Source of the DNA: Candidatus Omnitrophota bacterium
Lineage (GTDB): Bacteria > Omnitrophota > Gorgyraeia > Duberdicusellales > 4484-171
DNA length: 64,000 nt
Assembly: GCA_041652815.1 (NCBI GenBank)
Contig: JBAZGN010000003.1
Span: 1,530 to 65,529 of the forward strand
Reading direction: 5' to 3'
The notes beneath the pieces are model-generated. The model was not told the origin of the DNA and ran no database searches. It saw only the letters and a list, made by a program, of their open reading frames with translations. Of the stretch, positions 3,922 through 56,412 are shown piece after piece (position 1 is the first letter of the stretch; the number at the start of each line of letters is the position of its first letter). A program made the translations under genes and the position numbers.

Positions 3922-3956
3922 CTGCCCGCGGAGTACTACCGGCAAGCAGGAAATAA

Positions 3957-3988
3957 ACCCCGTTAGAGAACTAGTTTTCTAACGGGGT
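3957..3988. repeat. Palindromic REP-like element with a CCCCGTTAGA core (copy 1)
   Basis: ACCCCGTTAGAGAA-CTAG-TTTTCTAACGGGGT, a stem of about 14 bp. Related copies lie at 30794-30829 and inside ligA at 55621-55674. Confidence 0.6.
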
Positions 3989-4031
3989 AAATATTAGGTT
4001 GTTATTGTAGTTAAAAAGAAGGAGGAGTGCA

Positions 4032-15442: not shown

Positions 15443-15635
15443 TATATTATAATTATAGCACAAATGTTTTATAAAATAACCAATAACCAAGGTACAATAA
15501 CCAAATAAATTATAATTCTCAATAACCAATAATCAAAAAATTAAATTTTTTCGTTTGATCATTGGGATTTGATTATTGGTCATTATTTGGTTATTGGAAA
15601 TTGGAACTTGGTTATTCAATAGTCTAGGTAGCAAT
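15443..15635. promoter_or_regulatory. Divergent promoter region with a symmetric array of AATAACCAA / TTGGTTATT motifs
   Basis: At least five direct AATAACCAA-like repeats followed by three or four inverted TTGGTTATT copies. The shared core ACCAATAATCAAA / TTTGATTATTGGT flanks an A/T-rich centre. Confidence 0.5.
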
Positions 15636-17381: not shown

Positions 17382-17495
17382 TACCCCTTGCACCCATATA
17401 TCTGGAAATTTTCCTGGTCGCAAAGCGAGCGTGAAAATTTCCAGAAGTGCTGCGGGGTTAGTTATCCGCCTACGGCGGAGAACTAAGGAGGCAAT
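17382..17495 (+). promoter_or_regulatory. Conserved leader element, copy A (IR CTGGAAATTTTC-N19-GAAAATTTCCAG, CGGGGTTA box, hairpin, AAGGAGG)
   Basis: It is homologous to 35179-35299, which lies upstream of the pyrophosphatase gene. Confidence 0.55.
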
Positions 17496-17999
17496 ATGGA
17501 TATTTCCCGCTTGAGAAACTTAATCGTAGAATATAAAAAGGCCCAAAAGAAACTGGACGAAATAAAAGGCGAATATGAGAGAACGAAGACTTCTTATGAA
17601 CTAAGAATAGATTTGGAGAAAGAACTGGAAGATGAAATAAGGATGGCAAAGGAAGGCAATAAAGAAGATCTTATCCGCTATTGGCAGGATATTTTAAAGG
17701 AGCTTTTTCCAAACGATAAAGACCTGGCAGACAAGGGCGTTTACGAAAAATGTGAAAAAGAAATTTTGGTAAAAAACCAAAAATTAATATCTTATTACGA
17801 GAAAAAATTAAAAACCATTAAAAAGCATTTAGGCGCAAGATTATCGCAGTTGCTTGAAAATTACGAGGAGAGAAATACTTTAATGGGTGAAGATTCTTCA
17901 TCGAAACGTGCATCTCATACAATTTTCGAAGATGACGAAAAGGAATTGGAGAGAAAAGAGAAAGAACGTAAAACAAGCACGACATTCGATAAAATGTAA
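17496..17999 (+). CDS. Hypothetical acidic coiled-coil protein
   Basis: 167 aa, K/E-rich, with no recognisable domain. It is preceded by a strong RBS and leader element A. Confidence 0.5.
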   Translation: MDISRLRNLIVEYKKAQKKLDEIKGEYERTKTSYELRIDLEKELEDEIRMAKEGNKEDLIRYWQDILKELFPNDKDLADKGVYEKCEKEILVKNQKLISYYEKKLKTIKKHLGARLSQLLENYEERNTLMGEDSSSKRASHTIFEDDEKELERKEKERKTSTTFDKM

Positions 18000-27878: not shown

Positions 27879-28071
27879 ACTAAGCCGCAAATTTTAGGTA
27901 AAAAGCCTAAAAAATGGATATGTCTGGAAAAATAAGGTGTTTATTGGACGATACTTCGGACGCTCTTATGCATCGCGTCCTCAGTATCAATTCACACTAT
28001 CATTTTTTCTGCGCCCTGCCACCGAAGGTAGCGAGGCTTGAAAAAATGATGTGTTCATTGAAGGAGGAACA

Positions 28072-29208
28072 ATGAAGCGTAGATATTTGATGACTCCGGG
28101 CCCTTCTCCTGTACCATCGGTAGTCCGTGAAGCTTTGGCTTGTGAGATAATGCACCACAGGACTGATGAATTTATTGAAATACTTAAAGAAATAAATGAA
28201 GGCCTAAAATATGTTTTTTGTACAAAAAATCCTGTCTTAACATTTGCCTCTTCCGGCACCGGAGCGATGGAGGCAGCAGTAACCAATCTTTTTTCGGTAA
28301 AAGATAAAGTCCTTGTGATTGTCGGAGGAAAATTCGGAGAACGTTGGGTTGAGATAGCGAAAAGTTACGGCCTGGACATAGTTCAGATGAATGTTGAATT
28401 AGGCAACAGTCCAACGGCTGCAGAAGTAAAGAAAATATTGGATGAAAATAAAGACATTAAGGGCGTATTTACAACTCTAAGCGAAACATCAACTGCAACA
28501 GTTTTCGATATTAAAGGAATAGGTTCCTTAACTAAAGATAAAAATATTTTACTTATAGTGGACGCCATAAGCGGATTAGGGCAAGATGCTCTTTTAACCG
28601 ATGAATGGGGCATTGACGTTGTTGTGAGCGGTTCCCAGAAAGGCTTTATGCTTCCCCCGGGGCTTTCTTTCATGAGCGTTAGCGAAAAGGCGAAAAGTTT
28701 TATGAAGAATTCAACCCTTCCTAAATATTACTTTAGCTTAGCCAAAGCTTTAAAGTCATACGAGAAGAACGATACGCCCTTTACGCCGGCAGTATCCTTA
28801 ATTGTAGGCTTAAAGACAAGTATAAACCTGATTAAAAACGATGGCATTGAAAATATGTGGGCAAATTTTAAAAAAATGTCACAAGCTGCACAACAGGCAG
28901 CTTTAGCGCTAGGCCTTAAGGTTTTTTCAAAATGCCCTTCGTCATCGCTTACCGCGATAGTTTCTCCGGCAGGCATAAATGCTAAAGATATCGTCAAGAA
29001 AATGCGTAAAGAGTATGGGGTAAGCATTGCCGCTGGCCAGGGCGAACTTGAACAGAAAATTTTTAGAATTGCACATATGGGCTGGATAAATGAGCAAGAC
29101 CTTATAATGTGTTTTTCCTTGCTTGAAAAAGTGCTTCGCGATTGTGGTTATACTAACTTTAAAATAGGTGCTTCGGTTGCAAGGCTTCAGGAGGTTATTT
29201 ATGGTTAA
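28072..29208 (+). CDS. serC: Class V aminotransferase, probable phosphoserine aminotransferase
   Basis: PLP fold class V with an SGSQKGFM lysine motif. It is adjacent to serA and translationally coupled to it. The start was trimmed to MKRRYLMTPGP behind a GAAGGAGG RBS. Confidence 0.7.
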   Translation: MKRRYLMTPGPSPVPSVVREALACEIMHHRTDEFIEILKEINEGLKYVFCTKNPVLTFASSGTGAMEAAVTNLFSVKDKVLVIVGGKFGERWVEIAKSYGLDIVQMNVELGNSPTAAEVKKILDENKDIKGVFTTLSETSTATVFDIKGIGSLTKDKNILLIVDAISGLGQDALLTDEWGIDVVVSGSQKGFMLPPGLSFMSVSEKAKSFMKNSTLPKYYFSLAKALKSYEKNDTPFTPAVSLIVGLKTSINLIKNDGIENMWANFKKMSQAAQQAALALGLKVFSKCPSSSLTAIVSPAGINAKDIVKKMRKEYGVSIAAGQGELEQKIFRIAHMGWINEQDLIMCFSLLEKVLRDCGYTNFKIGASVARLQEVIYG

Positions 29209-30793: not shown

Positions 30794-30829
30794 AAACCCC
30801 CGTTAGAAAACAAAGTTCTCTAACGGGGT
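30794..30829. repeat. Palindromic REP-like element with a CCCCGTTAGA core (copy 2)
   Basis: CCCCCGTTAGAAAAC-AAA-GTTCTCTAACGGGG. It is roughly the reverse complement of copy 1. Confidence 0.6.
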
Positions 30830-30848: not shown

Positions 30849-32573
30849 ATGAAAAAGATAATCCTTTTAATGTGTTTTTTTATTTTGCCTTTAACATCTT
30901 ACGCTCACAAGCTTACAATAATTTATACAGGTAATTCATATTCTTCATTATACCCTTGCGGGCACTGCCCGGCATCTGTCGGCGGGGGAGTTGCACGAAG
31001 GGCATCTGTAATAAATGATGTTAAATCTAAGGCGAAAAACACAATTGTCATAGATGCCGGAGAATTTACCGCAGGCGGCGCATTAGATGAAGCGAGCAAG
31101 GACGTTACGACGGATAAAAATCGAGCCATTTATAATTATAAAGCGCTGCAAGCAATGGGTTACGAAATTGTAGGCGTGGGAGATGCAGAATTTAATTTCG
31201 GAGTAGATTTCCTAAAAGATAATATCAAGAAATTCAAGCTAAACGCAATAAGCGCAAATTTAGTCCTGGAAGGAGTGCGGCCATATTATATAAAAGAATT
31301 TTCCGGATTTAAAGTCGGAATAATCGGCCTCTCTCCTCAATCGATTTCAAAAAAGTCTTCTTCTGCTGATATAACGGATTACGATGCAGCGCTAACCAAT
31401 ACCATAAACAAAATAAAAAATAAGGTAGATTTTATTATTCTGGTTTCTCCGCTTGGAGATGAGGTTAACAAAGCAATTGCCAATAAATTCACTGACGTAA
31501 AGTTGATATTATCCAGTGGAAATATGCTGGATTCCAAAGAATACGAGAAAGTAAATGATACAATAATAATGAAACCATCGTATCTGGCAAAAGAAGTAAG
31601 AATTATAAATATAGAGATTAAAGCTAACAAGATATTGACCTTTGATTTGAAACAGGAAAAACTAGCCTTATCCGTGAAAGAAAATCCTGAAATAAAAAAG
31701 ATTATTCCTGCTTGCTTTAAGGATGGCGACTGCCAAAGGAGAGAAGGATTACTCGCAACTTGCCAAAAACAAGGTTCAAGCAAGGCAGCTTGCGTTTATT
31801 TTGAGCCAAATAGAATAGAAGCTATTTTAATTACTGATACTGCTTGCTCATTCTGCGTAACCGAACCTACCCAGAACTTGCTTCGGGAAATATTTCTGGG
31901 TATAAATTTTAAGGTTGTTGACTACAACACGCCTTACGCAAAAGAGCTTATAAAGAAATACAGCCTGATTAGCCTCCCGGCATTTATTATGCCTCAGGAG
32001 ATAAAAACAGAAAAAGAATTTCCACGGATTGCTAAATTTATCGACGAGAAAGATGGTAAATTATTATTAAAGCCGCAACTTTCCGGATTATTCCTGCTGT
32101 TAAATAGAAAAGAAATCCCGCGCCGGCTTGATTACTTTGTTGATCTCTATGAGCCTTCCGCACTTACAGTGTTTAATGATTTGAGTTCTTTTTGTAAGAA
32201 GGAAAAGATAAAACTTGATGTTCATTTCCTTCTTAGCGAAAAGAATGTTTACGGATATCCCAAAGAAGAAATACAGATAGCTTTAGCAGTAAAAAAAGTT
32301 GCCCCGGATAAATTTTTAGAATATCTTGCTAAAAGATTAAGTGATATTAAAAATACCTCATGGACAGATTCTCTGGAGGCGGTGGGTATCGATTATAAGA
32401 AGATAAAAGGAACTGCAAAATCTAAGGTGGTCGATAGAATGATTGAAGATAATAATAGATTGATTTCGGAATTAAATGTAAATTATGGAAACGTTATCCT
32501 TGTAAATAATAACAAAATTTTTACAGTGCTTAAGATTAAAACGGAAGATTTAGAAAAAATATTCGGGAGGTAA
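30849..32573 (+). CDS. Secreted protein: degenerate 5'-nucleotidase/metallophosphatase-like N-domain (with CGHC motif) + thioredoxin-like C-terminal domains
   Basis: Signal peptide present. The UshA-like fold has lost its DxH metal ligands (YTGNSYSS). The C-terminus has CSFC and further Cys pairs in a thioredoxin-like context. Confidence 0.45.
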   Translation: MKKIILLMCFFILPLTSYAHKLTIIYTGNSYSSLYPCGHCPASVGGGVARRASVINDVKSKAKNTIVIDAGEFTAGGALDEASKDVTTDKNRAIYNYKALQAMGYEIVGVGDAEFNFGVDFLKDNIKKFKLNAISANLVLEGVRPYYIKEFSGFKVGIIGLSPQSISKKSSSADITDYDAALTNTINKIKNKVDFIILVSPLGDEVNKAIANKFTDVKLILSSGNMLDSKEYEKVNDTIIMKPSYLAKEVRIINIEIKANKILTFDLKQEKLALSVKENPEIKKIIPACFKDGDCQRREGLLATCQKQGSSKAACVYFEPNRIEAILITDTACSFCVTEPTQNLLREIFLGINFKVVDYNTPYAKELIKKYSLISLPAFIMPQEIKTEKEFPRIAKFIDEKDGKLLLKPQLSGLFLLLNRKEIPRRLDYFVDLYEPSALTVFNDLSSFCKKEKIKLDVHFLLSEKNVYGYPKEEIQIALAVKKVAPDKFLEYLAKRLSDIKNTSWTDSLEAVGIDYKKIKGTAKSKVVDRMIEDNNRLISELNVNYGNVILVNNNKIFTVLKIKTEDLEKIFGR

Positions 32574-35178: not shown

Positions 35179-35299
35179 ACCCCTCGCGCCTACATATCCT
35201 GTAAATTTTCTCGGCCTACGGCCAGGAAAATTTACAGGAAGCGTTTCGGGGTTAATTCGCCCCGACGTAGCGTCGGGAGCTCATTAAGGAGGGTTTTGT
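35179..35299 (+). promoter_or_regulatory. Conserved leader element, copy B (IR CCTGTAAATTTTC-N15-GAAAATTTACAGG, CGGGGTTA box, hairpins, AAGGAGG)
   Basis: It aligns along its length with element A at 17382-17495. Confidence 0.55.
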
Positions 35300-37402
35300 A
35301 TGCCGAGTTTTGACTTCTTGATACTTGCGCCAGCAGGCTCGATATTCGCTCTTACTTTTGCCGCGTATTTAGCCGTTAAAATTTTAAAAAGCGACCCGGG
35401 AAATGATACCATGCAGGAAATCGCTCAAGCTGTACGTGTAGGGGCAAAAGCATATCTTAAACGCCAATATATCGGAGTTTCAATATTTTTTGCAGTTGTC
35501 TTTTGCATCCTTTTATTCCTTGCTCTAAAAAATTATCTGGTAATATTTGTACCTTTTGCTTTTTTAACCGGGGGTTTATTTAGCGGTCTGTCGGGCTTTA
35601 TCGGTATGAGTATTGCAACTCAATCGTCTAACCGAACTGCAGCCGCAGCAATGAAGAGTTTAAATTCAGGCCTTCGAATTGCTTTTTCAAGCGGCGCTGT
35701 TATGGGGCTTACCGTTGTAGGGCTTGGCCTCTTGGACTTAAGTATCTGGTATTATTTTCTTAACTGGTATTATTCAAATAATCCTATACCGCAAAATATA
35801 GATAAAATCGGTGCAATTACTTCAACTATGCTTTGCTTTGGTATGGGCGCAAGCTCACAGGCTCTATTTGCAAGAGTTGGCGGCGGAATTTTTACAAAAG
35901 CCGCTGATGTCGGCGCTGACTTAGTAGGAAAAGTCGAGGCAGGTATTCCTGAAGATGACCCGCGTAATCCAGCTGTAATTGCTGATAATGTCGGCGATAA
36001 TGTCGGTGACGTTGCTGGCATGGGCGCTGATTTATATGAGTCATATGTTGGCTCAATAGTTGCGACTTCTGCTTTAGGTGTTGCGGCAGGTTTAGGTATC
36101 AAAGGGGTAACTGTCCCTATGGTTATGGCAGCAGTAGGGGTAGTTGCGTCAATTATAGGAACCTTTTTTGTAAAAAGCAGGGAAGAAGCAAGTCAAAAAG
36201 TGCTGCTGGCAGCGCTTCGCAAGGGGGTATTTACCAGTTCTTTTATCGTAGCTATTATTTCATATTTTCTTATACGGTTTACTCTCGGCGCTGAACATAT
36301 TGGTGTATACTGGTCGGTTATATCCGGATTAATTGCAGGTGTACTTATAGGCATAATAACCGAATATTATACATCAAGCGGTTTTAAACCAACCCGTTTT
36401 ATCGCGGACCAGTCTCTCACTGGCCCGGCAACAGTAATTATAGGCGGTATAGCAGTGGGCATGATGTCAACAGCACTTCCGGTTATTATTGTAAGCGCTG
36501 CGATTATGGCAAGTTTTATCTTTGCCGGCGGCCTTCAGCATTTTGAAATAGGCCTTTATGGAATTGCCATTTCTGCTGTGGGAATGCTTTCTACATTAGG
36601 TATCACTTTAGCAACTGACGCATATGGGCCGGTTGCTGATAACGCCGGTGGAAACGCAGAAATGTCACATTTACCTCCTGAAGTGAGAAAGCGCACAGAC
36701 GCGCTTGACTCTCTAGGTAATACTACGGCAGCAACCGGTAAAGGCTTTGCAATTGGCTCAGCCGCTCTTACCGCACTTGCACTTATTGCGGCGTTTAAAG
36801 ATGAGGTAGTTAGATTTGGTTCTACTATGCAATTAGATATTATGAAACCGGCGGTTTTAGTCGGCTTGTTCATTGGAGGAATGCTACCGTTTCTTTTTTG
36901 TTCAATGACCATGCGCGCGGTAGGCCGTGCCGCATCAAAGATTGTGGTTGAAGTGCGCAGGCAGTTTAAGGAAATTAAAGGCCTCATGGAAGGCAAAGCT
37001 AAACCTGATTATGCACGTTGTGTAGACATTGCTACCTCTGCTGCCCAACATGAAATGGTTTTACCGTCACTTCTTGCAATTACTGCTCCTATAATAATCG
37101 GAATAGTTTTAGGAGTTGAAGCTGTAGGCGGATTGCTCGCAGGATCTCTCGTTACCGGTTTTGTTTTGGCAGTTATGATGGCAAACGCAGGTGGAGCCTG
37201 GGATAATGCTAAAAAATACATCGAAGAAGGCCATCACGGCGGCAAAGGCTCATTCGCTCATAAGGCAGGTGTAGTTGGAGATACAGTAGGAGACCCGTTT
37301 AAAGATACATCCGGGCCTTCCTTAAACATTCTAATTAAACTTATGTCTATGGTGTCAATAGTTTTTGCTTCGTTTATTATACGCCACACCTTATTCAAAT
37401 AA
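35300..37402 (+). CDS. hppA: Membrane-bound proton-translocating pyrophosphatase (V-PPase) HppA
   Basis: 700-aa polytopic protein with DVGADLVGK and GDNVGD motifs. Confidence 0.9.
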
Positions 37403-43982: not shown

Positions 43983-44037
43983 GGGCCTGTAGCTCAGTTG
44001 GGAGAGCACTTCGTTCGCAACGAAGGGGTCAGGCCCG
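43983..44037 (+). ncRNA. tRNA-like element lacking a T-arm (acceptor + D-arm + anticodon arm, anticodon CGC)
   Basis: GGGCCTG/CAGGCCC acceptor, a canonical D-arm (TAGCTCAGTTGGGAGAGCA), a CTTCG-TTCGCAA-CGAAG anticodon arm, then directly the 3' acceptor strand and a T-run. Confidence 0.4.
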
Positions 44038-44053: not shown

Positions 44054-44126
44054 GGGCCGGTAGTTCAGTTGGGAGAACGCCTCGTTCGCAACGAGGAGGT
44101 CGGCGGTTCGAATCCGCTCCGGTCCA
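44054..44126 (+). tRNA. tRNA-Ala (anticodon CGC)
   Basis: Folded cloverleaf with a G3:U70 pair, T-arm GGCGGTTCGAATCCGCT and discriminator A. No CCA is encoded. Confidence 0.85.
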
Positions 44127-44404
44127 TTTTTATATTTTGGTGGCGGGCAACTCTCCTCAGGTCCATATTCTTGCTTCTATGTTACGTTTGTCAGCTTAAA
44201 GGCCTGTGGCAGTTTGGTGGCAATCGTTGGATGCACTACAAAGAAGGTTTCGACTTCGTCGAAGAGTACATACAACTTTCTTCAGGTCCATATTAAACAG
44301 ATTGCAGATAACAGTCTAACAGGCTTTCAGCCTGTTGAGCAGATAGGCAGATATCTAATTCCAATCTGTCATCTGCTATCTACAACAAAAACTATAAACA
44401 AACT

Positions 44405-50294: not shown

Positions 50295-52078
50295 AAAAAC
50301 TACGGATTGCAAAAGTAATACTGCCTATTGCCCTGGAGAGAGAATTCGATTATTCAATTCCTGATTCGTTTAATGTAAAATTGGGTTCACGACTGCTTGT
50401 TGATTTTAGAGGCATTAAAACAGTTGGAATACTTAGCGAAATAGTGCATAATTCTGCGATAGAAAAGATAAAACCGGTTATAGAAGTTTTGGATACTAAT
50501 CCTGCATTATCACAAGATGCCATAAAATTTGCCAAACAACTAAGTGAATATTACCCTTATCCGCTAGGTGAATTTTTATTTATGATGTTGCCTGGTTATC
50601 TAAAAAAACCTCGGCCAACCGATTTACCATCGTTTGAAAAAGAAACAAACGTAAATATTCCTCAAAACCTATTCGTGAAAGCCGAAACATTCGAAAAACG
50701 TTATGGAATATGGAAAAAGTTTGTCATAAATAAACTAAAATTGGGTTCGGTTTTAATAATACTTCCTCAAATTTCTTATCTAAATGAAGCTAAAAAAATA
50801 ATCGAAAAAGATTTCCCCGATTTGAAAGTAATGCATGGCTATCAAACTGAGAAAGAACTATTTCAGGGCTGGCTTTCCACAAGGAAGAATTCACTTATTT
50901 TAGGCAGCCGAATGGCTCTTTTTTACTATCCTTACGACCTTGAATTAGTTATTATCGAGGAAGAAAACAGCTCGTATTATTTTCAGGAAGAAAAGCCTTT
51001 TTACCATCTTTTCGATGTTGTATCCATGCTTTCGAAAGCAAAAAAAATAGATATTATATTTGGTGCAGGCTATCCAAGCATCAGCGCATATAATCTAATA
51101 AGTCAAAAACGGCTTAAGCTGGATGAAAACGACGAACATCAGAAAGAAATCAAGATAGTAAACATCGGGGAATATAAGCGGCAATTGATAAGCCCACTAC
51201 TTGTAGAATTGTTGAATAAGAGTTTATCCTCGGGGCAACGCAATGTGATAATGTGGAATAAAACAGGATTTGGTTCGTATCTTGCGTGTTCTTCGTGCGG
51301 CTATATATTCAAATGCGAAAGATGTTCTACTTTTCTTAAGCAATCGCTTACAAGAAATAAAGGCATATGCCCATCATGCGGGTTACAGCGCGATTTATCA
51401 AAAATATGTAAGTTATGTAACAGCGGTTATATACGCAGCGCAGGCTGCGGCATAGAGCGGATAGAATCGAGTTTAAAAAAAATATTTCCTGACATAAAAA
51501 TAGATGAGTGGGAAAAGAAAGCCCCGGATACACAAATCATCCTTGCTACATCAAAAATTTTAAGTACTATATATGGCAGCGAGAAGTTTGATAACGGATT
51601 CTTTCTGGATGCCGATTACCAGATGTCACGGCTTGATTACGACGCTACTTTCGATACTTATACATACTTAAAAAAACTTAACTGTTTATTCAGGGAAAAT
51701 ATATATGTGTTTACGCGCAACAAAAATCATTATTTGTTTAAAACCATAAATGAACCATGGAAACACTTCTACGACAAGGAACTTTTGTCACGAAAAGAGC
51801 TAAAACTTCCTCCCTACGGGGCTCTTGTGCAGATTACTTTAAGAGCACGTTCTGCCGAACGAGTATTCGAGCGTTCAAATCGTCTCTTTAGGGAATTAAC
51901 TGACAAGGGTTTTGATGTGTATGGCCCGCTCAAAGAACAACCTTTTAAACTCAGAGGTAAATTCCGCTATTATATTATAATGAAATCAAAAGACGGATAT
52001 CGGTTACGTAAGGAAATAAAACAGATAGCTAAAGGTGTGCGTAGCCAGGGAATACAAATGGCAATTGCGATACATTGA
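50291..52078 (+). CDS. priA: Primosomal protein N' (PriA) with degenerate helicase ATPase motifs
   Basis: 3'BD/WH N-domain, a cysteine-rich region (CSSCG...CERC...CPSCG) and a PriA-like helicase scaffold. Walker A is absent, the Walker B DEEH position reads EEEN, and the QxxGRAGR motif is absent. Confidence 0.75.
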   Translation: MKKLRIAKVILPIALEREFDYSIPDSFNVKLGSRLLVDFRGIKTVGILSEIVHNSAIEKIKPVIEVLDTNPALSQDAIKFAKQLSEYYPYPLGEFLFMMLPGYLKKPRPTDLPSFEKETNVNIPQNLFVKAETFEKRYGIWKKFVINKLKLGSVLIILPQISYLNEAKKIIEKDFPDLKVMHGYQTEKELFQGWLSTRKNSLILGSRMALFYYPYDLELVIIEEENSSYYFQEEKPFYHLFDVVSMLSKAKKIDIIFGAGYPSISAYNLISQKRLKLDENDEHQKEIKIVNIGEYKRQLISPLLVELLNKSLSSGQRNVIMWNKTGFGSYLACSSCGYIFKCERCSTFLKQSLTRNKGICPSCGLQRDLSKICKLCNSGYIRSAGCGIERIESSLKKIFPDIKIDEWEKKAPDTQIILATSKILSTIYGSEKFDNGFFLDADYQMSRLDYDATFDTYTYLKKLNCLFRENIYVFTRNKNHYLFKTINEPWKHFYDKELLSRKELKLPPYGALVQITLRARSAERVFERSNRLFRELTDKGFDVYGPLKEQPFKLRGKFRYYIIMKSKDGYRLRKEIKQIAKGVRSQGIQMAIAIH

Positions 52079-52184
52079 ATACAGAGAACAGATAACAGAA
52101 GAATCTGCCTTCTGTTTTCTGTGCTCTGTTATCTGTTCTCTGTATTCTGTCATCTGAACCCTAACCGAGCGAAGCGAGGTTAAT
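52079..52184. repeat. ACAGA-rich long inverted repeat + CTAACCGAGCGAAGCGAGGTTAA pre-start motif
   Basis: TACAGAGAACAGATAACAGAAG ... CTTCTGT..CTGTTATCTGTTCTCTGTA arms of about 22 bp. Confidence 0.6.
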
Positions 52185-54232: not shown

Positions 54233-54351
54233 ACGCAGAGGACAGATGACAGAAAATAGAGGACAGAAAGACGGGGAATGAAAAACGAAGGGTGAAGGGC
54301 GAAAATAGAGGGACGATAAAGAGGGAAAAGTATCGCGTAAACGAACTTATT

Positions 54352-56412
54352 ATGGGTGAGTTGGATAAAATAAAAAAAGAAATCGAAAAGTTGCGTGAGC
54401 AAATCCGCGACGCCGACTATAAATATTACGTTTTAAGCGAGCCGGAAATTTCCGATAAAGAATATGACGACATCTTGAAACAACTCAAAGGCCTTGAAGA
54501 AAAATACCCGCAGCTTATTACTCCGGATTCTCCTACTCAGCGCGTTTCCGGCGGCCTCCTCGAAGGCTTTCCTACTGTAGAACATAAAATAAAAATGATT
54601 TCTCTGGATAACACTTATTCAATAGAAGAACTTAAAGACTGGGAAAATAAAATCAAACGGATACTGAAACGCGATGTCTATATTGATTATGTGGTTGAAC
54701 TTAAGATAGACGGCGTAAGCTGCGCATTAACTTACGAAAAGGGAATGCTTCTAACCGGGGCAACAAGAGGCGACGGAACTATCGGCGAAGACATCACGAC
54801 AAACGTAAAAACAATAAAATCAGTGCCTCTTAGATTAAGGGGGGACGCTCCAGAGGTGCTCGAAGTCCGGGGCGAAATTTACATGGATAAAAAAGACCTG
54901 GAAAACATAAATAAAATGCGCCTTAAACTGGATGAGCAGCCTTTTGCCAATCCACGCAATGCTGCAAGTGGTTCGTTAAAATTATTAGACCCTTCAATAG
55001 TTAAAGAACGCAACTTGAAATGCTTTATACATTCATCTGGCCTGGCAAAAGGAGTTGAATTTAAAAATCATTATGAATTTTTTGAAAAAATTAAGGCTCT
55101 GGGCTTACGAATAAATCCTTACAATAAATTATGCAAAGATTTGGATGAAGTAATTGAATACTGTCTTTCCTGGCAGTCCAAGCGCGATAGTTTGGAATAT
55201 GAAATTGACGGAATCGTAGTAAAGGTGAATGATTATAGGTTACGTAAAGAACTGGCTGAAACCTTAAAATCTCCTCGTTGGGCAGTTGCCTATAAATTTC
55301 CGGCACATCAGGCAACAACTACTGTGCAAAAAATTGAGTTTGGTGTAGGTAGAACCGGTATAATTACCCCCGTAGCCATACTTAAACCGGTTGAATGTGC
55401 TGGAGTAACCATTTCAAGGTCAACCTTGCATAATTTTGATGAAATTGAGCGTCTTGACGTAAGAGAAGGTGATACTGTTTTAATCGAGCGGGCCGGAGAA
55501 GTTATTCCTAAAATAGTCAAAGTTATAACTACAAAACGCAAAGACGCCTCAAAAAAAATAAAAGTACCAATGGTGTGTCCGGTATGCAGGCAAAAGTTAG
55601 CCAAGGAAAAGGAAGAAGAAGTTTACCCCGTTAGAAGCAAAACTTTCAAAAAGAAAGCTTCTAACGGGGTTTACTGGTATTGCATAAACCCTGATTGCCC
55701 GGCAAAAATAAAACAATCCCTATTGCATTTTGCTTCCCGTGGCGCCATGGATATTGAAGGCATGGGCGAAAGTGTAGTTGAAGAACTGGTTAATCGAAAC
55801 CTGGTTAAAAGCCTTGCAGATATTTACAAAATAACAAAAGAAGATTTGCTTAAACTGCCTCTTTTTGCTCAAAAGAAGGCCGATAACCTTATCCTGGCTA
55901 TTGCAGTCAGTAAAAAACGGCAGGTGTCGCGGCTGCTTTATGCTTTAGGCATGCACCACATTGGAGAAAAAGCAGCAAGCCTTTTGGCTGATAAATTTAA
56001 AAAAATAGATATGTTTTTCAAATTGAAGAAAGAAGACCTCGAAAGAATCAGCGAAATCGGGCCGGTAATGGCTTCGTCGGTTATCAAATTTTTTGCATCC
56101 GCTAAAGCAAAAAAGCTTATAGAGGAATTTAAAAAAAGTGGGCTTAATTTAAGCCAGGAAGAAAAAACGATTAAGCAAAGCTCTATAAGCGGAAAAGTAT
56201 TTATTTTTACAGGAGAACTTAAAAGTTTCTCGCGTAGCCAAGCTAAAGAGTCTGCCGAAGCGCTTGGCGCTAAATGCGCCTTCTCAATAAGCAAGAATAT
56301 AGACTATGTAGTTGTAGGAGAAAACCCCGGCTCTAAATATGAAAAAGCCAAGAAACTACATCTCAATATAATCACTGAACAGGATTTTAAAAAACTAATC
56401 AATCTAGGCTGA
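54352..56412 (+). CDS. ligA: NAD-dependent DNA ligase LigA
   Basis: KxDG adenylation motif (ELKIDGVS), OB fold, Zn finger, HhH and BRCT. The start was trimmed to MGELDKIKKEI, because the ORF from 54292 translates repeat sequence. The Zn-finger loop carries an extra ~17-aa insertion. Confidence 0.85.
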   Translation: MGELDKIKKEIEKLREQIRDADYKYYVLSEPEISDKEYDDILKQLKGLEEKYPQLITPDSPTQRVSGGLLEGFPTVEHKIKMISLDNTYSIEELKDWENKIKRILKRDVYIDYVVELKIDGVSCALTYEKGMLLTGATRGDGTIGEDITTNVKTIKSVPLRLRGDAPEVLEVRGEIYMDKKDLENINKMRLKLDEQPFANPRNAASGSLKLLDPSIVKERNLKCFIHSSGLAKGVEFKNHYEFFEKIKALGLRINPYNKLCKDLDEVIEYCLSWQSKRDSLEYEIDGIVVKVNDYRLRKELAETLKSPRWAVAYKFPAHQATTTVQKIEFGVGRTGIITPVAILKPVECAGVTISRSTLHNFDEIERLDVREGDTVLIERAGEVIPKIVKVITTKRKDASKKIKVPMVCPVCRQKLAKEKEEEVYPVRSKTFKKKASNGVYWYCINPDCPAKIKQSLLHFASRGAMDIEGMGESVVEELVNRNLVKSLADIYKITKEDLLKLPLFAQKKADNLILAIAVSKKRQVSRLLYALGMHHIGEKAASLLADKFKKIDMFFKLKKEDLERISEIGPVMASSVIKFFASAKAKKLIEEFKKSGLNLSQEEKTIKQSSISGKVFIFTGELKSFSRSQAKESAEALGAKCAFSISKNIDYVVVGENPGSKYEKAKKLHLNIITEQDFKKLINLG
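55621..55674. repeat. CCCCGTTAGA-core palindromic element (copy 3) inserted in-frame within ligA
   Basis: TACCCCGTTAGAAGC-N18-GCTTCTAACGGGGTTTAC. It encodes VYPVRSKTFKKKASNGVYWY between the Cys pairs of the LigA zinc finger. Confidence 0.55.

Follow-up and report, generated by a model that had tools for sequence, protein, structure and literature searches.

Correia elements (CREE/NEMIS) of Neisseria are non-coding, high-copy repeats of about 100-155 bp that insert at TA, often right upstream of genes, and are co-transcribed to give long hairpins in the mRNA. Here, we compare these and related repeats to two hairpin blocks in a 64,000-nt stretch of DNA (the window) from a Candidatus Omnitrophota metagenome-assembled genome (MAG). 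Copy A is located in the leader of a gene for a hypothetical protein of 167 amino acids (aa), and copy B is located in the leader of a membrane pyrophosphatase gene. We consider it probable that both are members of a high-copy, modular, non-coding family of hairpin repeats of Candidatus Omnitrophota, similar to BOX elements, repetitive extragenic palindromic (REP) sequences, and miniature inverted-repeat transposable elements (MITEs). This family has apparently not been described so far. In kind, such a family is already known from the Correia, BOX, REP/REPIN, ERIC, and Rickettsia palindromic elements (RPE).

The Omnitrophota blocks are like Correia elements in that they are short, non-coding, multi-copy, and gene-adjacent, with strong hairpins and a possible TA duplication. 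However, Correia elements are bounded by terminal inverted repeats of 26 bp and are nearly identical to one another within one genus, whereas copies A and B lack terminal inverted repeats and their family is modular, has hypervariable stems, and is spread over many genomes. The BOX elements of Streptococcus pneumoniae are also modular intergenic repeats (boxA, boxB in n copies, and boxC) that form stable RNA structures near genes. They belong to another taxon and have no sequence similarity to the Omnitrophota elements, which lie much closer to stop and start codons. REP, BIME, and REPIN sequences, which are mobilized by REP-associated tyrosine transposases (RAYTs), share with the Omnitrophota family a palindromic, intergenic, and multi-copy nature, compensatory upkeep of hairpins, long persistence, and an orientation bias. 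In contrast to REPs, which are mostly found at the 3′ ends of genes, the Omnitrophota elements precede genes and extend up to the start codon or the Shine-Dalgarno sequence; no RAYT (Y1 transposase) gene was found, though none was searched for. RPE can be inserted in frame in coding genes, as is a palindrome of about 20 codons in ligA of the window, but this is the one in-frame case here, most Omnitrophota copies are intergenic, and there is no sequence relation. Lastly, the ompA-type 5′ stem-loop stabilizers and the RNase III sites between the early genes of phage T7 are stable hairpins at or between cistrons, just upstream of ribosome-binding sites, and the Omnitrophota elements, which are similarly placed, might have a similar effect once transcribed. 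Those hairpins are single, gene-specific structures and not a repeated family with presence/absence polymorphism. The family differs from the known repeats in its three-hairpin, four-way-junction design, the occurrence of its modules independently of one another, the close fit of the element into the space from stop to start codon, and the combination of conserved junctions with hypervariable stems across the genomes of one phylum.

Two Homologous Leaders and Their Predicted Folding

The initial annotation had reported that the two leaders align along their length, and this homology was borne out. With the 5′ starts corrected to A17383 for copy A and A35179 for copy B, a global alignment of 17383-17491 with 35179-35292 gave 82 identical columns out of 119. 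The local alignment score was 45, compared to 14.5 ± 2.3 (maximum 29) for 1000 dinucleotide shuffles. The homologous blocks are 17383-17484 in copy A (102 nt, + strand) and 35179-35285 in copy B (107 nt, + strand); the ATG of the 167-aa gene follows at 17496 and that of the pyrophosphatase gene at 35300. The 20-nt box GAAGYGYTKCGGGGTTARTT occurs twice in the window, both times in these copies, while 0.02 occurrences are expected by chance. Homologues of the 167-aa protein were found only in Omnitrophota-labelled or unnamed metagenomic records, and the protein had no Pfam match. The gene downstream of copy B encodes a membrane pyrophosphatase (PF03030).

Each copy was predicted to form two strong stem-loops that reach the Shine-Dalgarno sequence AAGGAGG. 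The predicted RNA folds have energies of -50.8 kcal/mol (copy A) and -56.0 kcal/mol (copy B), each with z = -5.1, and an equally strong fold was predicted for the opposite strand of the leaders. Hairpin 1 (17383-17458 in copy A and 35179-35252 in copy B, both +) has in both copies an ACCCC/GGGGU base, a GCRC/GYGC helix, an internal loop, and a long AAAUUUU stem. In the predicted fold of copy A, the helix is GCAC/GUGC, the internal loop consists of CCAUAUAU facing a shorter 3′ side, and the stem ends in a GC tip. Hairpin 1 of copy B was assigned from the predicted fold together with the alignment and pair counts of the subfamily described below. Hairpin 2 is GC-rich in both copies, and its final paired base falls within AAGGAGG. 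It is predicted to pair as UAGUU-A-UCCGCC UAC GGCGGA-G-AACUA in copy A (17459-17485, +), where the final base is the first A of AAGGAGG, and it reads UAAU-UC-GCCCCGACG UAG CGUCGGGAGC-UC-AUUA in copy B (35253-35287, +). The ends of hairpin 2 in copy B, TTAATTCGC ... GCTCATT, are of the family type.

A perfect inverted repeat had been noted in each leader and read as a possible long hairpin with a variable loop. The inverted repeats are real, with arms at 17401-17421 and 17425-17445 in copy A (86% complementary) and at 35197-35216 and 35220-35239 in copy B (90% complementary). The variable loop did not stand, as the "spacer" between the arms is not the loop itself but a prolongation of the stem, which ends in a small GC hairpin whose loop is 3 nt long. 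The differences between copies A and B preserve pairing in all three helices. Compensatory swaps were found from A-U to G-C in GCAC/GUGC, from G-C to U-A in the long stem, and from G-C to A-U at the base of hairpin 2. The closest relatives of the two copies form an 11-sequence subfamily found at different sites, and 11 of the 26 pairs predicted for its hairpin 1 with RNAalifold have changes on both sides. These data support the view that the leaders contain long hairpins whose stems are kept.

Filled and Empty Sites in Close Relatives

Loci from relatives, from a genome scan, and from a metagenome scan were given L-numbers (L001 etc.). Copy A is present in L001 and L002, which encode an identical 167-aa protein. 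In L125, whose protein is 89% identical, the site is empty and reads GGATAAATAATTT|AAGGAGG; written with its flanks, it is ...CGGATAAATAATTT|AAGGAGGTCGTATGGATATTTCCCGC in L125 and ...CGGATAAATAATTT[102 nt]AAGGAGGCAATATGGATATTTCCCGC in the window. The block is also missing from L126, L127, and L003 (protein identity 86%, 83%, and 81%), in which the spacers ahead of the 167-aa gene are 24 nt, 12 nt, and 95 nt long, compared to 205 nt in the window. Copy B is missing from all three of L128, L129, and L130, which encode pyrophosphatases 93-95% identical to that of the window. The purA-hppA spacer of these relatives is 44-52 nt long and reads ...TTTTTATTC|AAAGGAGGGTTTTGTATG, whereas that of the window is 150 nt long, with the block placed between TTTTTATT(ATAT) and AAGGAGGGTTTTGTATG. 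The empty-site form can be written as ...TTTTTATT(C)|AAAGGAGGGTTTTGTATG.

Each copy is either present or absent as a single block of about 100 nt just 5′ of the Shine-Dalgarno sequence. At both copies, the Shine-Dalgarno sequence belongs to the target site and not to the element: the AAGGAGG of the 167-aa gene (17485-17491, +) is already part of the empty site in L125, and that of the pyrophosphatase gene (35286-35292, +) is kept in the empty sites of L128-L130. The empty-site flanks match exactly for both copies and leave room for a duplication of 2 nt at most. Copy A may have duplicated a TA (TTTA|CCCC...AAC|TA|AGG); the site of copy B is too diverged to read. Gain in the window lineage would be more parsimonious than loss. 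More distant orthologues of the 167-aa gene have different yet related leaders. The leader in L005 reads ACCCCCACACCAATTG..CAATTGGTGTGGGGGTTAATTCGCAC..GTGCTCATTAAAAAGGAGG, and those in L006 and L007 contain several modules in tandem.

A Family of Repeats in Omnitrophota

The genome scan covered one genome per species and was conducted with the pattern GGGGTTAATTCGCN{16,46}GCTCATT, which represents the junction of copy B and is matched exactly by hairpin 2 of that copy. At least 117 genome loci with the junction motif GGGGTTAATTCGC..GCTCATT were found, and by our own estimate about 30 chance matches, spread over all phyla, are expected with this pattern. Among the matches listed, the named genomes are nearly all Omnitrophota MAGs or single-amplified genomes, or MAGs named "uncultured Planctomycetales/Planctomycetia", and there are several copies per genome, with at least 11 in MAG JBAZGZ01. 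The pattern had no matches in viral contigs. The metagenome scan was conducted with a hairpin 1 of the type found in copies A and B (ACCCCTYGC..GYTKCGGGGTTAR) and gave at least 108 loci; about 14 of the 101 distinct matches were judged by eye to be GC-rich chance matches.

An ACCCC...GGGGT base of hairpin 1 with a variable stem is shared by both copies, 124 genome copies, and the metagenome subfamily. Copy B also matches the family junction and 3′ end exactly (GGGGTTAATTCGC, hairpin 2, and GCTCATT(AA)). In copy A, GGGGTTAGTT is found instead, along with another form of hairpin 2 that ends in AACTA. The variant ...AAAATTTAAGGAG recurs in L164, L198, and L235, and a short, GC-rich hairpin 2 like that of copy A is present in L164, L165, L198, L215, L227, and L235. 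Copy A was counted with the junction feature because it is homologous to copy B and the subfamily, and not by a pattern match.

No match was found in Rfam 15 for the whole window at the gathering threshold, for both leaders up to E 10, or for L003, L005, and L006 up to E 1. Chance-level matches to microRNAs and Moco-II were all that appeared, the best being Moco-II on the opposite strand at 20 bits compared to a gathering threshold of 35. The Omnitrophota papers checked for RNA motifs, leaders, hairpins, or repeats make no mention of the element; the one that deals with an RNA describes a group I intron in 23S rRNA. Taken with the two scans, these results agree with the initial annotation, which had pointed to a recurring class left unexplained by any annotated feature. 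Two other candidates were rejected: integron attC sites have different core sites, group II/IIC introns are far larger than the element, and in both cases the genes downstream of the element are housekeeping genes.

Full Elements and Covariation

Full elements contain three hairpins. They have the 5′ end TAAGTGAGG, followed by hairpins 0, 1, and 2. Hairpin 1 is preceded by the linker GAACUU and has the ACCCC...GGGGU base and a very variable stem, and hairpin 2 is framed by UUAAUUCGC ... GCUCAUUAA. The modules occur singly, paired, in threes, or repeated, and copies A and B have hairpins 1 and 2 only.

The consensus fold of 22 aligned full elements is predicted to be a four-way junction with no unpaired junction bases. 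It would be formed by a closing helix (AGUGA/UCAUU), which joins the two ends of the element, and by the three hairpins, with a GAA/UUC base and a CUU/UAA internal loop in hairpin 1. A standard pair was formed in 93.1% of the cells of this alignment, compared to 78.9% for shuffled and 29-40% for slid controls. Changes on both sides were found in 28 of the 47 pairs (18.7 for shuffled and 9-15 for slid controls), and the covariation score was 0.382 (0.139 for shuffled and at most 0.085 for slid controls). The check for covariation suggested by the initial annotation was positive for the stems of the full elements, as it was for the subfamily of copies A and B. Many genomes share the junction sequences, whereas the stems differ through numerous compensatory changes. 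No covariation was found in the closing helix at 87 sites because its 3′ strand is nearly invariant; 8 of the 87 have an A-C mismatch.

A covariance model built from the 22 full elements (R1) located further copies. It gave 248 matches, counted on both strands, in 100 genome-scan loci (0.7 Mb), including elements that the search pattern had missed. R1 hit both strands at most sites, with the sense strand about 30-60 bits higher at the best-scoring sites listed, and the element is therefore pseudo-palindromic. In the window, R1 gave no matches with default filters and weak matches with the filters off (13.3 bits and E = 0.33 for copy B; no match for copy A). Neither copy has hairpin 0 or the closing helix, the parts that dominate the model.

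The arms form nearly perfect palindromes, and the fold energies for 69 elements were -50.6 kcal/mol for the sense strand vs -51.0 kcal/mol for the antisense strand. The sense strand had a 1.7-fold excess of G-U pairs (174 of 2763 vs 104 of 2840). With equal fold energies and a modest G-U excess, the hairpins may be kept either as RNA or as single-stranded DNA. The clear strand-specific features are position, orientation, and asymmetric ends only.

Position Relative to Genes

Downstream of 97 of the 124 genome copies, an open reading frame (ORF) with a length of 60 aa or more begins within 80 nt, and in 81 of these 97 cases it begins within 20 nt. As is usual in the family, copies A and B immediately precede the Shine-Dalgarno sequence and have the orientation of the gene. 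In about 28 copies, drawn from L008-L124, the start codon is 1-7 nt after GCTCATT, which leaves no room for a Shine-Dalgarno sequence (e.g., L047, L057, L078 at 7743, and L105; GCTCATTAAAATG). The 5′ GUGAGG/GAGG was considered as a displaced Shine-Dalgarno sequence, and it had no association with the lack of one (28/20 vs 22/10; odds ratio 0.64, p = 0.48). Full elements begin T-AAGTGAGG, and the stop codon of the upstream gene (TAA or TGA) is inside TAAGTGAGG in at least 23 of them. In those, the element fills the intergenic space exactly, and full elements often run precisely from the stop codon to the next start codon. The flanking genes were both codirectional with the element in 60 cases and both opposed to it in 8.

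A sigma-70-type promoter is located directly upstream of the element in L005, L056, and L102. Promoter and terminator scans gave nothing useful at either of the two leaders in the window. Separately, a promoter-like module, TAGAAATTTGGTA..TGTATTTACTTATAAT (TTGnnn-17-TATAAT), was seen directly upstream of hairpin 1 ahead of three different genes (L186 8440-8480; L198 2039-2080, - strand; L235 985-1025, - strand). Some elements may, judging from this module, carry their own promoter.

The 79 downstream proteins match 124 Pfam families, none of them more than two times. Their products include RNA polymerase beta-prime, EF-Tu-type GTPases, S2, RecA, DnaB, GlnA, GAPDH, IlvC, PheS, TopA, Amt, and OmpH. 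Omnitrophota are uncultured, mostly ultra-small bacteria, and we know of no work on the control of their gene expression. In the sampled genomes, the repeat family fills the gap from the promoter or stop codon to the ribosome-binding site before many housekeeping genes (rpoC, EF-Tu/G-type GTPases, rpsB, recA, glnA, and gap). For annotation, this means that the family accounts for many "conserved leaders" and palindromes and for at least one in-frame gene insertion. For evolution, it means that large structured insertions are tolerated, or exploited, right at translation start sites.

Signs of Insertion and Duplication

Direct repeats abut the copies in L033 (21 nt), L015 (20 nt), L022 (17 nt), L039 (12 nt), and L110 (11 nt), and the copies in L014 are in tandem. 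Overall, the flanking direct repeats span 11-38 nt, compared to 10 nt or less in most controls and a control maximum of 14 nt. In L014 (6523-6830) and L017 (1855-2080, - strand), copies are found in the T-loop of partial tRNA duplicates that adjoin intact tRNA-Lys and tRNA-Met genes; the tandem unit of L014 is 157 nt long and consists of the 3′ part of the tRNA and the element. The hairpin-1 sequence ACCCCTTGCTTAAACGCCGGGAAAATCTCATACGACATTTTCCCGGCAAGCTGCGGGGTTAA is found almost unchanged before different second hairpins and genes. The direct repeats, the tRNA duplicates, the near-identical hairpin 1, and the palindrome in ligA are signs of recent insertion or duplication.

Several features of MITEs were found, as the copies are short, non-coding, and multi-copy and show presence/absence at orthologous sites with intact flanks. 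Full elements have weak terminal inverted repeats, with 6-7 of 9 bases shared between TAAGTGAG and the reverse complement of CTCATTAA. A further observation was made in L033 (1620-1830, - strand), where a 21-nt stretch containing a Shine-Dalgarno sequence and an overlapping stop/start (AAGGAGTTGAAYAAGTGAAGC) is present on both sides of the element. The insertion apparently interrupted a GTGA stop/start overlap, which the duplication then re-established.

Weighing the Possible Explanations

If copies A and B belong to a family of repeats, as we think probable, the block would be acquired or lost whole, at T/A-rich sites that immediately precede a Shine-Dalgarno sequence or lie at a stop codon, and it would then be transcribed within the 5′ leader or the intercistronic spacer. 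Transcribed copies A and B would form stem-loops of about -50 kcal/mol 5′ of a mostly unpaired Shine-Dalgarno sequence. Because the stem-loops leave most of the Shine-Dalgarno sequence unpaired, the effect on the gene is probably neutral, or a mild stabilizing or insulating effect on the mRNA, as 5′ stem-loops have, and would not be that of a switch. The element would neither sense a ligand nor define a regulon. The shared element gives no ground for treating the 167-aa and pyrophosphatase genes as co-regulated.

A number of points weigh against a mobile repeat of this kind. The abutment of start codons, the orientation bias, and the phylum-wide conservation of the junctions exceed the needs of a purely selfish repeat and fit a selected RNA function; the roughly 28 copies with an ATG 1-7 nt after GCUCAUU and no Shine-Dalgarno sequence also belong here. 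Terminal inverted repeats are absent from copies A and B (they run from TACCCC to ...AACTA or ...CTCATTA) and the duplication is at most 1-2 nt (TA), which falls short of the cut-and-paste mechanism of a classical MITE. No transposase or other mobilizing enzyme was identified, though no search for a partner transposase was made. In principle, the presence/absence pattern could reflect precise loss of the palindrome in the relatives and not gain. We infer from sequence that the element is transcribed. In addition, some copies have a -10-like box at their 5′ edge; RNA transcribed from it would begin inside ACCCC and would thus be unable to fold into the outer stem.

Another possible explanation, although we find it doubtful, is that the element is a selected structured RNA module for the processing, stabilization, or translation coupling of many housekeeping mRNAs, and that mobility served only to spread it. 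Pairing of the 5′ AGUGA with the 3′ UCAUU would put the upstream stop codon, or the 5′ end of the transcript, beside the downstream start codon. This would suit elements that often span exactly from stop to start codon, the start codons that follow GCUCAUU by 1-7 nt and lack a Shine-Dalgarno sequence, the pronounced bias in orientation, and junction nucleotides that are conserved over many genomes while the stems vary. It would also suit the excess of G-U pairs on the sense strand and the promoters upstream of the element in L005, L056, and L102, from which the transcript would start at or in the 5′ end of the element. However, the closing helix on which this pairing depends has no compensatory changes, the sense and antisense strands fold equally well, and the 5′ GUGAGG module is not tied to the lack of a Shine-Dalgarno sequence. 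Moreover, close relatives differ in whether they carry the element at both sites of the window, and copies A and B have neither hairpin 0 nor the closing helix. If processing does take place, RNA ends are expected at TAAGUGAGG or GCUCAUU|AAA.

A more elaborate proposal, which we regard as rather unlikely, gives the full three-hairpin element a function of its own as an RNA device. In this proposal, the four-way junction would extend from the stop codon (or the 5′ end of the transcript) to the next start codon, and initiation without a Shine-Dalgarno sequence would take place at an AUG 1-7 nt beyond the junction, either by termination-reinitiation or on a near-leaderless mRNA produced by cleavage. 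A portable expression module of this kind would spread by copying within Omnitrophota genomes, perhaps via an RNA intermediate. Spread via RNA would be compatible with the bias in orientation, the flanking duplications of variable length, and the GUGAG...AU ends. Should the stop-to-start four-way junction prove functional, it would represent a new type of intercistronic element in bacteria.

The initial annotation had taken the two leaders as pointing to a regulon or a class of cis-regulatory RNA. A riboswitch, or a leader responsive to a ligand or protein, in a regulon that includes the 167-aa and pyrophosphatase genes would fit the leader position, the strong predicted fold, and the pairing kept between the copies, but we now consider it very unlikely. 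The 124 Pfam families downstream have no functional theme and, therefore, indicate no regulon or ligand-specific riboswitch. There are several copies per genome, Rfam gave no match, and stem and loop lengths vary freely, with the conserved bases located in helices and junction linkers. Both blocks are also absent before the orthologous genes of close relatives, in which the proteins are 81-89% (copy A) and 93-95% (copy B) identical. Such a pattern is that of a repeat that is present in some lineages and absent in others, and not that of a regulatory leader conserved with its gene.

The other suggestion, that the 12-13 bp inverted repeat is an operator bound by a dimeric regulator, is highly improbable. 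The palindrome is perfect and its AAATTT core is kept in the 11-member subfamily; however, the outer positions of the arms change from copy to copy, always on both sides and with pairing kept, and the distance between the arms ranges from a few to more than 40 nt. Wholly different palindromes are found at the same place in other family members, and the palindrome is nested in a larger helix (ACCCC/GGGGU and GCRC/GYGC) that an operator would not need. Equally implausible is a transcription attenuator or terminator ahead of the genes, which would account for GC-rich hairpins upstream of genes, but there is no U-tract, as GGGGUUAAUUCG follows hairpin 1 and AAGGAGG follows hairpin 2, and the terminator scan was blank at the elements.

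Other Copies and Features in the Window

A third related leader (27958-28059, +) is located 5′ of a gene for a class-V aminotransferase (Pfam), with its ATG at 28072. It consists of a first hairpin (GGACGC..GCGTCC), TCAATTCACAC, a second hairpin, GTGTTCATT, and then GAAGGAGG; the tail after the second hairpin can also be written as GTGTTCATTGAAGGAGG. The first hairpin is unlike that of copies A and B. With the filters off, R1 matched this leader at 18.3 bits (E = 0.026), and nearly the same module forms the gene-proximal part of the leader in L006 (2890-2988).

Two copies in the window consist of hairpin 1 only and share the palindrome ACCCCGTTAGA..TCTAACGGGGT, each between a stop codon and the next Shine-Dalgarno sequence. 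One (3956-3989, +) is found between a bamA-like and an ompH-like gene, and the same hairpin is joined to TTAATTCGC in L024. The other (30797-30829, +) follows the stop codon of a serA-like gene (30781) and precedes the AAAGGAG of the adjacent gene, whose ATG is at 30849. OmpH-family genes are also found downstream of two family copies in other genomes.

The in-frame palindrome in ligA (55620-55675, +) is of the hairpin-1 type (GTTTACCCCGTTAGAAGC..GCTTCTAACGGGGTTTAC) and was matched by R1 at 20.1 bits. It adds about 20 residues in the zinc-finger region that have no counterpart in solved LigA structures, and the ligA ORF (54292-56412) is intact across it.

Several other features were seen in the window. 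A 55-nt tRNA-Ala(CGC)-like sequence without a T arm (43983-44037; 40 bits with the Rfam tRNA model, not called by ARAGORN) is located 16 nt upstream of an intact tRNA-Ala(CGC) gene (44054-44126). In the region 44113-44296, the 3′ end of this tRNA-Ala, CCGGTCCATTTT, is echoed twice downstream as CAGGTCCATATT (at about 44159 and 44285), and these echoes resemble attachment sites that integrated elements have left behind. A perfect 23-bp inverted repeat, GAATACAGAGAACAGATAACAGA, with arms 25 nt apart (52077-52147), lies directly after a gene ending at 52078 and is unrelated in sequence to the hairpin family. Lastly, the divergent spacer of two radical-SAM genes contains a 68-nt imperfect inverted repeat with AATAACCAATAA-type sub-repeats (15470-15621), and long perfect hairpins are present at the corresponding places in L005 (139-218 and 1527-1666).

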